NCBI RefSeq assembly: GCF_044324875.1
Contig: NZ_CP172185.1
Direction: 5' to 3' (one strand)
DNA: 64,000 bases
Source: Escherichia coli
Lineage (GTDB): Bacteria; Pseudomonadota; Gammaproteobacteria; Enterobacterales; Enterobacteriaceae
Part shown: in pieces, positions 15,861-21,638 of the stretch
Position numbering within the stretch: position 1 is the stretch's first letter
How the letters are laid out: each line of letters begins with the position of its first letter
Translations under genes and position numbers: made by a program
The notes under the pieces: model-generated
What the model was told of the DNA's origin: nothing
Database searches by the model: none
What the model saw: the letters and a program-made list of their open reading frames with translations, nothing else

Positions 15861-16901
15861 TCACGCAAGGCACAGCGTCGCGCGATGTTTGGCGGATTCG
15901 ATGCCCAGCTCAATCAACTCCATTACCTGGATTGCCTGACTTGCCGGAACCGGATTTTCACCATCGCCATTTAACGCATCACGAATAGCCGCATAGTAAG
16001 CCGGATAATTCCCTGGTACTGTCAACAGCGTTTCTTCGACACGTTCCTCACCTTCCACGCGGGTAAGTACGCCATCACGCATATCGTAGCCCCAGTCTTC
16101 CTGCGGCAGACGCTCGCCATTTTTCAGACGTTCTTCCTGTGGATCGAGGCCATATTTCACATAACTGCCTCGGGATCCATGCACGATATAACGTGCTGAC
16201 TCAGCGGCTGCCAGCATGGTGCCGTGTAAAATGACTCGCCGCTGCGGATAGGACAAGATGGCGTGGAAATAATCAGTCGACTGCGCTCCGGGCCGTAACT
16301 GTGCCAAATCTACCGTCATGCTAACCGGTAAACCAAATAGCGTAATGGCCTGATCAAGAAGATGCGGTGCTAAATCGTACCAGATACCGCTGCCAGGGCC
16401 GCCCTGTTCACGCCAACGATCGCGCACCTGCGGACGGAAGCGGTCAAAATGAGACTCAAAGTAAGCAACTTCACCCAGTACGCCTTCCGCGAGCAAACCT
16501 TTTAGCGTCAGGAAATCGCTATCCCAGCGACGGTTATGGAATACAGACAGCACACGCCCCAGGCTTTTTGCCAGCGCTTCCAGCTCTCGCGCTTGTGACA
16601 GTGTCACGGTAAAGGGTTTATCAACGACCACATGTTTACCCGCCTCAAGCGCCGCTTTGGCTAACGGGAAATGGGTATCGTTGGGTGTAGGAATGACAAT
16701 CAGGTCTATGTTGGGATCGTTAAACAGATGCTTCGGCTCAGAGACAACCGTAACCGTTGGCCAGTCGGCTTTTACTTTTGTTTCATCGCTGCTGGAGATT
16801 ACCGCCAGTTCCAGCCCGGGCGTGCCCGCAATCAGGGGCGCATGGAAGGTTTTGCTCGCATAACCATACCCAATCAACCCAACACGGATGTTGTCGCTCA
16901 T
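15861..16901 (-). CDS. ydgJ: Gfo/Idh/MocA-family oxidoreductase YdgJ
   Basis: Start at internal ATG (MSDNIRVGLIGYGYASKTFHAPLI), 346 aa; Rossmann N-terminus. Confidence 0.85.
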   Translation of the reverse strand: MSDNIRVGLIGYGYASKTFHAPLIAGTPGLELAVISSSDETKVKADWPTVTVVSEPKHLFNDPNIDLIVIPTPNDTHFPLAKAALEAGKHVVVDKPFTVTLSQARELEALAKSLGRVLSVFHNRRWDSDFLTLKGLLAEGVLGEVAYFESHFDRFRPQVRDRWREQGGPGSGIWYDLAPHLLDQAITLFGLPVSMTVDLAQLRPGAQSTDYFHAILSYPQRRVILHGTMLAAAESARYIVHGSRGSYVKYGLDPQEERLKNGERLPQEDWGYDMRDGVLTRVEGEERVEETLLTVPGNYPAYYAAIRDALNGDGENPVPASQAIQVMELIELGIESAKHRATLCLA

Positions 16902-17143
16902 GTCATTGCCTCTCATTGAAGTATGATGGCTATTTGACACTATCCTTTACCCTCGCTCAACAGTTTAATAACCTGCCAGCAATAAGGGATGTTGTTTAAC
17001 TTAAGTCAAAAAAATAGCGAATTTTCCAACGACAAAAGCTAAATATCGCAAAAACCTCAGTAAAAATCTTGCTGGAGCTATTATTGCTAAGTAACATTTA
17101 CCCCCTGAAGTTAATGGATCAATCAACAGAGATGTGGGCTGTA

Positions 17144-17269
17144 ATGAATCGTCTTATTGAATTAACAGGTTGGATCGTTCTTGTCGTTTCAGTCATTCTT
17201 CTTGGCGTGGCGAGTCACATTGACAACTATCAGCCACCTGAACAGAGTACTACGGTACAACACAAGTAA
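17144..17269 (+). CDS. blr: Small membrane protein Blr (41 aa)
   Basis: MNRLIELTGWIVLVVSVILLGVASHIDNYQPPEQSTTVQHK; single TM segment; between ydgJ and cnu. Confidence 0.8.
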   Translation: MNRLIELTGWIVLVVSVILLGVASHIDNYQPPEQSTTVQHK

Positions 17270-17290
17270 GCTCTGCGCTTGTAGAGCGAC

Positions 17291-17383
17291 ATGCTGCCCG
17301 TCCGGGTGCATGTTTTCACTTGTCGGATATTAAACCAGGAATTTATTATCTTGTTCGATGTTGTTGGTGATTGTCAGAGATAG
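17291..17383 (+). CDS. Possible small ORF (30 aa), unverified
   Basis: ATG-initiated ORF MLPVRVHVFTCRILNQEFIILFDVVGDCQR in the blr-cnu intergenic region; no strong SD seen. Confidence 0.2.
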   Translation: MLPVRVHVFTCRILNQEFIILFDVVGDCQR

Positions 17384-17541
17384 TAAAGCGCGTTACTCTT
17401 TTCAGAGCAGTTTTTCATCCCTGAATATTTGCCATCAGCGCATTCTTATTATTGTAATAACACACGCGTTCACTTTTGGTGAAATTTTATCATCACTAAT
17501 AATACCTACCCCTTTGGTATTAATTATTTTATGGACCTTTT

Positions 17542-17757
17542 ATGACTGTTCAGGACTACTTATTAAAATTTCGCAAAATCAGTTCACTCGAAAGTTTGGA
17601 AAAACTCTACGACCATCTTAATTACACCCTGACGGACGATCAGGAACTGATCAATATGTATCGTGCTGCCGATCACCGTCGCGCAGAGCTGGTTTCTGGC
17701 GGGCGTTTGTTTGACCTCGGCCAGGTACCGAAGTCCGTCTGGCACTATGTCCAATAA
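17542..17757 (+). CDS. cnu: Hha/YmoA-family nucleoid-associated protein Cnu (YdgT)
   Basis: 71-aa [53 protein letters not shown]... Confidence 0.9.
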
Positions 17758-17842
17758 AGAAAGTAGCGATCGGTTATAAAAGCCTTATAATAACGCCCCT
17801 AAAATTAGATTTGCCTGTTTGCGTCGCTATTCTGGAGAACCT

Positions 17843-18283
17843 ATGACCACCACAACGCCACAACGTATTGGAGGCTGGTTGCTTGGCCCATTGGCCTGGC
17901 TTTTAGTCGCTCTGTTAAGTACGACGCTGGCGTTGTTGCTGTATACCGCTGCGTTATCTTCTCCGCAAACATTTCAAACGCTCGGCGAACAAGCACTGAC
18001 GACACAAATCTTATGGGGCGTTTCATTTATTACCGCTATCGCCATGTGGTATTACACACTGTGGTTGACCATCGCTTTCTTTAAACGTCGGCGTTGTGTT
18101 CCTAAACACTATATTATCTGGCTGCTTATTTCCGTATTGCTGGCAGTAAAAGCGTTCGCTTTTTCACCCGTGGAAGATGGCATAGCCGTTCGCCAGTTAC
18201 TGTTTACTTTGTTGGCAACCGCATTGATCGTCCCCTATTTTAAACGCTCGTCGCGGGTGAAAGCGACGTTTGTGAATCCGTAA
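17843..18283 (+). CDS. ydgK: Inner membrane protein YdgK
   Basis: Start at internal ATG (MTTTTPQRIGGWLLGP), 146 aa, multiple TM helices; precedes rsxA. Confidence 0.85.
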   Translation: MTTTTPQRIGGWLLGPLAWLLVALLSTTLALLLYTAALSSPQTFQTLGEQALTTQILWGVSFITAIAMWYYTLWLTIAFFKRRRCVPKHYIIWLLISVLLAVKAFAFSPVEDGIAVRQLLFTLLATALIVPYFKRSSRVKATFVNP

Positions 18284-18359
18284 TAACCTTACAGTTAACC
18301 TGTTGTCGCCTGCTCTGGATTAACGGATAATAGGCGGCTTTTTTATTTCAGGCCGAAAA

Positions 18360-18940
18360 ATGACTGACTACCTGTTACTGTTTGTCGGAACTGTACTGGT
18401 CAATAACTTTGTACTGGTCAAGTTTCTCGGTCTCTGTCCGTTTATGGGGGTTTCCAAAAAGCTGGAAACCGCGATGGGCATGGGGCTGGCTACAACGTTT
18501 GTGATGACGCTGGCGTCTATTTGCGCCTGGCTTATCGATACGTGGATTTTGATCCCGCTTAATCTGATTTACCTGCGCACCCTGGCGTTTATTCTGGTGA
18601 TTGCTGTGGTTGTGCAGTTCACCGAGATGGTGGTGCGCAAAACCAGCCCGGTGCTTTACCGTCTGCTGGGGATTTTTTTGCCGCTTATCACCACCAACTG
18701 TGCAGTGCTCGGCGTGGCGTTGCTGAATATCAATCTCGGGCACAATTTCTTGCAGTCGGCGCTGTACGGTTTTTCCGCCGCTGTCGGTTTCTCGCTGGTG
18801 ATGGTGCTTTTCGCCGCCATCCGCGAACGCCTTGCTGTGGCTGATGTCCCGGCACCTTTTCGCGGTAATGCCATTGCGTTAATTACCGCAGGTCTTATGT
18901 CTCTGGCCTTTATGGGCTTTACTGGTTTGGTGAAGTTGTA

Positions 18941-18941
<1 letters not shown>
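18360..18941 (+). CDS. rsxA: Rnf/Rsx electron transport complex subunit A
   Basis: 193-aa polytopic membrane protein; first gene of rsxABCDGE. Confidence 0.9.

Positions 18942-21638
<2,697 letters not shown>

Follow-up and report, generated by a model that had tools for sequence, protein, structure and literature searches.

A 30-codon reading frame between blr and cnu of Escherichia coli is very probably a chance ORF overlying blr 3'-end hairpins and promoter-like DNA

In the E. coli chromosome, the ATG-initiated frame of 30 codons found between blr and cnu is, with high probability, a chance frame within an AT-rich, Escherichia-specific spacer, and encodes no selected protein. Positions given here are those of the window, the whole 64-kb stretch of DNA that was analysed, unless they are marked as K-12 coordinates. 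In the explanation that we favor, region 17270-17400 would be the junction of two transcription units, where the hairpins of the blr 3' end, an Escherichia-specific spacer and the cnu promoter region follow one another. The first third of the ORF would then lie over the two tandem hairpins in which the blr transcript ends, with its ATG arising from the self-complementary CAUG in the stem of the second, and the open frame that follows would be a product of chance in AT-rich DNA. Its middle part would coincide with a short block conserved in nucleotides within Escherichia, and its last codons with the -35-like hexamer of an element upstream of cnu. Because most blr transcripts would contain no more than the first 5 nt of the ORF, and transcription of cnu is predicted to begin ~20 nt past it, the ORF would fall between the two transcription units and be reached by read-through RNA only. 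A biologically significant peptide would not be expected from it.

The frame, its neighbors and chance expectation

The order of genes in this part of the chromosome is ydgJ (-), blr (+), cnu/ydgT (+) and ydgK, with the ORF located between the second and third (Table 1). It is indeed present and unannotated at exactly the position for which the original prediction had proposed it, and corresponds to K-12 1704698-1704790 (K-12 coordinate = window + 1687407, a conversion checked against both the K-12 annotation and the alignment; the blr-cnu spacers of the window strain and K-12 align without indels). The encoded peptide of 30 aa, MLPVRVHVFTCRILNQEFIILFDVVGDCQR, has seven charged or ionisable residues distributed along its length, and reading of its sequence reveals no obvious transmembrane stretch.

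Table 1. Position of the ORF, its neighboring genes and the elements that overlap or flank it (window coordinates).
Feature	Position	Strand	Description	Basis
blr, upstream gene	17144..17269	+	41-aa division-septum / beta-lactam-resistance small protein	
Hairpin 1	17270..17287	+	GCUCUGC-GCUU-GUAGAGC, starts 1 nt after the blr stop	fold
Hairpin 2	17288..17318	+	GACAUGC-U-GCCC-GUCC-GGGU-GCAUGUU (17288-17314), then UUUUCACUU; intrinsic-terminator-like	fold, pattern scan
Candidate 30-codon ORF	17291..17383	+	ATG...TAG; judged very probably a chance ORF, not a gene	
Published blr 3' end	17295..17295	+	K-12 1704702	Term-seq, PMC7815308
26-nt block	17331..17356	+	TAAACCAGGAATTTATTATCTTGTTC; codons 14-22; first, second and third codon positions all invariant in 6/6 Escherichia sequences	
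Promoter-like block	17371..17399	+	TTGTCA (17371-17376)-N17-TACTCT (17394-17399); putative cnu promoter	
Decayed Escherichia version of the covarying hairpin	17401..17425	+	UUCAG...CUGAA	
cnu/ydgT, downstream gene	17542..17757	+	71 aa, H-NS/StpA-binding protein	

Frames of this length are readily obtained by chance. When the 272-nt spacer (39% G+C) was shuffled 5,000 times with its dinucleotide composition preserved, 61% of the shuffled spacers had one or more ATG ORFs of 30 codons or longer, as did 39% when only the + strand was considered, while the 64-kb window as a whole contains 396 such ORFs. The presence of this ORF is therefore uninformative by itself. Nor do annotation and database searches single it out. 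The curated K-12 MG1655 record has zero annotated features between blr and cnu, and no PGAP feature lies under the ORF in any of 60 rows sampled from 5,424 matching complete E. coli genomes. Three versions of the exact peptide were not found among ~15 billion proteins, the peptide had no match to NCBIfam models at E-values up to 10, and neither its sequence string nor epitope-tag or mass-spectrometry data on it were found in the searchable literature. At the RNA level, an Rfam scan of 16000-19000 in E-value mode returned no RNA family. A REP- or MITE-type element was considered as well and rejected, the spacer being without meaningful repeats and the segment being single-copy in E. coli genomes.

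Two further observations concern annotation and open frames in this spacer. The numbering of PGAP locus tags from blr to ydgT has a gap of one in three strains (NZ_CP031609.1, NZ_CP019777.1 and NZ_AP017617.1; e.g. RS16070 to RS16060) and is continuous in four others, possibly because a feature was annotated here at some time and then withdrawn. An 87-aa ATG ORF (17358-17621, +), also present in K-12, starts inside the candidate ORF and crosses the cnu start out of frame, and is presumably noise.

Tandem hairpins, the blr 3' end and published ribosome profiling

Folding of the RNA directly downstream of blr yields two tandem hairpins with a joint free energy of -28.5 kcal/mol (z = -3.6 versus shuffles). 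The second starts 19 nt past the blr stop, and has a full stem of 11 pairs with one bulge; a terminator pattern scan matched 17295-17308 plus CATGTTTTCA. With a GC-rich stem-loop, a U-tract directly after it, and a location shortly 3' of a co-directional stop codon, hairpin 2 has the makeup of an intrinsic terminator and may act as one, its U-tract being short at 4 U only. Among six Escherichia sequences, four of its five unpaired positions vary versus 4 of its 18 paired ones, and of the paired changes two keep and two break the pairing, the six sequences being too few for statistics. As far as these alignments go, this pattern of variation would be that of an RNA stem rather than that of codons. 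Both hairpins are absent from the syntenic spacers of genera outside Escherichia. A conserved blr terminator was considered and rejected in this respect, since the hairpins found after blr differ in sequence and position across genera and the tandem arrangement is Escherichia-specific.

The start codon of the ORF (17291-17293) is embedded in the 5' arm of hairpin 2, as part of a CAUGC/GCAUG stem. For this codon, the computed probability of an unpaired state is 0.00, as compared to 0.18, 0.55 and 0.68 for the start codons of blr, cnu and ydgK, and the mean over positions -15 to +6 is 0.25. The original prediction had noted the lack of a clear SD, which is correct for the window strain, where the best anti-SD duplex reaches -2.1 kcal/mol; together with the paired ATG, this leaves the ORF without an accessible ribosome-binding site. 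In K-12 a GGAG (-5.6 kcal/mol) does precede the ATG by 4 nt, within the 3' arm of hairpin 1. Because the SDs of blr and cnu are themselves weak, the SD argument by itself carries little weight.

Published Term-seq data place the end of the blr transcript at the very start of the ORF. The only primary 3' end listed for blr, found in two conditions, is K-12 1704702 (+) (Adams et al. 2021, PMC7815308, supplementary file 1), and the 61-nt sequence printed with it places this end at the T of ATGCT, i.e. 5 nt into the ORF. It follows that the ORF is missing from most blr mRNA. The mapped end lies 8 nt past hairpin 1 and within the 5' arm of hairpin 2, and the U-tract (17313-17321) has no 3' end listed; the end at 17295 may be a processed one or a product of non-canonical termination. 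The arrangement thus resembles Rho-independent terminators and 3'-UTR stabilizing hairpins in having two stable, GC-containing hairpins directly after the blr stop and a mapped 3' end in this region, but differs from a Rho-independent terminator in that this end is located inside the 5' arm of hairpin 2 and outside the short U-tract. With blr ending at 17295 and a putative cnu promoter at the 3' end of the ORF, no stable transcript was found to cover it.

The same frame has been catalogued before. Table S4 of 'The Cryptic Bacterial Microproteome' (PMC11188072) contains it as NC_000913.3 1704685-1704787 (+), cluster Escherichia_74476, in a TTG-extended K-12 version of 34 codons (LWSDMLPVRV...CQG). 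The entry has a dN of 0.085, a dS of 0.037 and a dN/dS of 2.30, as well as the number 1264 in an unlabelled column, which we read as the cluster size. Its label 'Intergenic' denotes smORFs that are potentially translated and without predicted coding potential, as opposed to the 'Entero67K' set, and according to that study most of these potentially translated intergenic smORFs show no sign of selection. For the K-12 TTG start, 22 (MG1655) and 14 (BL21) TIS reads are given with retapamulin, with no Onc112 row among the rows listed, and RPF reads amount to 134 and 166 in two strains, covering 93-100% of the ORF (PMC11188072). The string 'blr' does not occur among the rows listed in the SmallProt sheet of this Table S4, and Blr may have failed the combined TIS and RPF filter. 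The supplement of Stringer et al. 2021 does not have the candidate ORF among the entries listed.

Where do these TIS reads come from? An out-of-frame GTG, 2 nt downstream of the TTG, has practically the same number of TIS reads, 20 and 14 (PMC11188072). In smORFer, read midpoints are summed over a three-codon interval centered on the start codon (threshold ~5 reads), so that the midpoints counted here fall at 17276-17286, in the loop and 3' arm of hairpin 1, with no overlap with 17288-17296 around the ATG. Fragments of ~20-38 nt ending at 17295 would have their midpoints in this same interval. We infer that the 'TIS' reads stem from 3'-terminal hairpins of blr mRNA that resist nuclease, and not from initiating ribosomes. 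In the window strain, moreover, the TTG is directly followed by an in-frame TAG and the GTG is a GTA, which means that both starts bearing the signal in K-12 are missing, and that only the 30-codon ATG form exists. Ribosome occupancy had been suggested as a check on the ORF, and the published tables answer it in part: no initiation signal is reported at the ATG, and the weak retapamulin counts that do exist belong to K-12-specific TTG and GTG starts and are centered on the hairpin. The published RPF counts do imply some read-through RNA over the ORF, and a low level of ribosome occupancy is possible.

Conservation of the frame and of the DNA beneath it

Conservation was assessed on 80 cnu loci, one genome per species, across the Enterobacteriaceae, most of which keep the blr-cnu synteny. 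Within E. coli the frame is intact in 8/8 alleles examined. The five variable sites of the ORF in these alleles are N15D, D23G, G26D, R30G (the last being the difference in K-12, where the frame is likewise intact) and a synonymous CGG>AGG change, which affects a first codon position in the loop of hairpin 2; third-position changes are absent altogether. Two sister Escherichia lineages also have an intact frame, with peptide identities of 83% and 72%, in genomes where Blr is 90-93% and Cnu 97-100% identical. The frame is broken elsewhere in the genus, by an in-frame stop at codon 22 in Escherichia sp. E1V33, and in E. albertii by a stop at codon 9 as well as two indels (-1 and +1). Changes at codon positions 1/2/3 in the Escherichia comparisons number 2/4/1, 4/4/3, 4/4/4 and 7/5/5, without third-position excess. 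Outside the genus, none of 51 syntenic spacers has similarity to 17270-17369, and homology with Citrobacter begins only at 17370. This Escherichia-specific 100 nt was also searched with blastn and tblastx as a possible remnant of the gene that is inserted between blr and cnu in Klebsiella and Raoultella, which was rejected as nothing was found below E = 0.2.

Conservation of the reading frame across the Enterobacteriaceae, which had been proposed as a further check, is therefore absent, as is conservation at synonymous sites, given the in-frame stops and frameshifts and the equal substitution of codon positions; neither the purifying selection nor the intact frame of a small-protein gene was found. 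Blr, a validated small protein of at most 50 aa, serves for comparison. The two are alike in size, intergenic position and strand, which is that of their neighbors. Blr, however, is recognizable in syntenic position across at least 10 genera with 46-93% identity, whereas the candidate ORF is already disrupted in some Escherichia and has no detectable counterpart in other genera. Nor does it have the accessible start, annotation or family match of validated small proteins in E. coli.

What is conserved beneath the ORF appears to be nucleotide sequence. The flanks of the 26-nt block that is invariant among the six Escherichia sequences diverge by 15-25%, and the block includes TATTAT (17344-17349), the -10-like half of a sigma70-like match, TTGTCG(17320)-N18-TATTAT. 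Judged by its alignment, the constraint on this block is at the level of nucleotides, not of protein, and the block would putatively be a site of protein binding or else a promoter specific to Escherichia.

The 3' end of the ORF runs into a second, far more widespread element. A promoter-like block with the family consensus TTGCCW-N17-TAAYCT is present in 64/81 cnu loci across the Enterobacteriaceae, with a spacer that is variable in sequence and exactly 17 nt long in 63 of the 64; in the window its -35-like hexamer TTGTCA overlaps codons 27-29 of the ORF. At 8-12 nt 3' of the -10-like hexamer follows a hairpin that covaries across genera (CAGGCGCC/GGCGCCUG, CAGGCAUC/GAUGCCUG, CGGAUGCC/GGCAUCCG, CAGGUGUC/GACACCUG). 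Block and hairpin are located ~170-390 nt upstream of cnu (loci L006-L078 of our set). In Klebsiella, Raoultella and relatives they stay ~245 nt upstream of cnu despite an insertion of 1.3-1.7 kb after blr, and because the block thus stays by cnu, a cnu promoter and leader is favored over a blr 3' UTR. For the same reason, we rejected block and hairpin as a blr 3' UTR or terminator, or as a 3'-UTR sRNA. It is possible that they are the terminator of the inserted gene. The most plausible reading of the comparative data is that the block is the cnu promoter and the covarying hairpin the 5'-terminal stem-loop of cnu mRNA. The hexamer spacing is that of a sigma-70 promoter, and such a promoter followed by a 5' stem-loop is matched in the hexamers, the fixed 17-nt spacing, the variable spacer sequence and the covarying hairpin 8-12 nt on. 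Different from a canonical sigma-70 promoter, the -10-like hexamer matches TATAAT at 3/6 positions (including the key A2 and T6), and in Escherichia the hairpin has decayed. A mapped cnu promoter was not found in the searchable papers, a Cappable-seq supplement being without this locus among the entries listed, and neither was a description of the conserved block or the covarying hairpin in the searchable literature.

Some observations on the surroundings of this element are of separate interest. The insertion in Klebsiella, Raoultella, Superficieibacter, Pluralibacter and relatives (loci L034, L036, L054 and others) is a + strand gene of ~450-465 aa that spans from just after blr to ~250 nt before cnu. 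By eye, its product looks like a glycoside hydrolase of family 1, with FNET and ITENG motifs, and the gene is preceded by a perfect palindrome, TGCAACCGGTTTCTGAAACCGGTTGCA, which is operator-like in appearance. Closer to cnu, the Term-seq data include an 'orphan' 3' end at K-12 1704938, which is window 17531 and 11 nt short of the cnu start codon, and a bicyclomycin-sensitive site at K-12 1704967, inside cnu (PMC7815308). Ahead of the orphan end, within 17498-17531, are a small hairpin with the arms TAATACC (17501-07) and GGTATTA (17517-23), and the sequence ATTATTTTA. Taken together, the orphan end and the bicyclomycin site suggest premature termination or attenuation in the cnu leader.

Other readings of the frame and what it means

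Could the frame nevertheless be translated to some effect? Among the points that weigh against a reading by chance alone are the RPF counts of 134 and 166, the intact frame in eight E. coli alleles and two sister lineages, and the K-12 GGAG, and all of these would fit a young, Escherichia-restricted proto-gene, in which low, pervasive translation from blr read-through RNA yields a peptide without selected function, for instance by ribosomes that, having opened hairpin 1, start anew 22 nt past the stop codon of blr. The retapamulin TIS counts for the extended K-12 frame, and the statement of the source study that most potentially translated intergenic smORFs are without selection (PMC11188072), point in the same direction. 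Against it stand the read midpoints, which lie on hairpin 1 and off the ATG and are common to the out-of-frame GTG, the lack of an Onc112 row and of an entry by Stringer et al. among those listed, the main blr 3' end at 17295, the fully paired ATG, and the destruction of both K-12 alternative starts in the window strain. We therefore see only a small chance for a proto-gene, and a slighter one for the variant in which re-initiation at the ATG on read-through RNA opens hairpin 2, coupling the translation of blr to read-through toward cnu.

Hardly any credence can be given to a genuine, functional small-protein gene comparable to the 41-aa Blr, even though small proteins are known from this region and the ORF is intact in E. 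coli. The disrupted frames of E. albertii and Escherichia sp. E1V33, the absence of a homologue beyond the genus, a dN/dS above 1 without codon-position bias, and the lack of annotation, family match or obvious transmembrane stretch all argue against it, as do the sequestered start and the location past the main transcript end. The unannotated small protein that the original prediction had held possible thus finds no support, while its own caution that the ORF may be noise is borne out by the chance expectation, the lost frame conservation and the absence of coding-type substitution. Least credible of all is a leader peptide or uORF, the translation of which would control read-through of the blr terminator into cnu in the manner of an attenuator. 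A ribosome at an ATG inside a terminator-like hairpin would indeed melt the stem, and cnu does lie downstream on the same strand. However, cnu has its own conserved promoter-like block from the 3' end of the ORF, which it has kept across the gene insertion, and the position of this block would put the ORF upstream of the predicted cnu TSS. Furthermore, at least 10 genera have conserved cnu and the block upstream of it, whereas the ORF and the hairpins are absent outside Escherichia, the ORF being confined to a part of that genus and its peptide not being conserved.

The chance frame remains by far the best explanation for the ORF. The frame is one of a large class of non-conserved intergenic smORFs known from a catalogue of E. 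coli; it is itself an entry of that class in PMC11188072, and the low TIS counts and the dN/dS given there match it. The elements underneath, a terminator-like hairpin and a promoter-like block, are of ordinary kinds. The value of this analysis is mainly negative, in that a plausible, unannotated small ORF beside a real small-protein gene is very probably an accidental frame over ordinary regulatory RNA and DNA, and weak 'TIS' counts in tables of re-analysed Ribo-seq data may stem from nuclease-resistant, 3'-terminal hairpins. The block upstream of cnu and its covarying leader hairpin may, in addition, be of minor use for studies on the regulation of the Hha/Cnu family.
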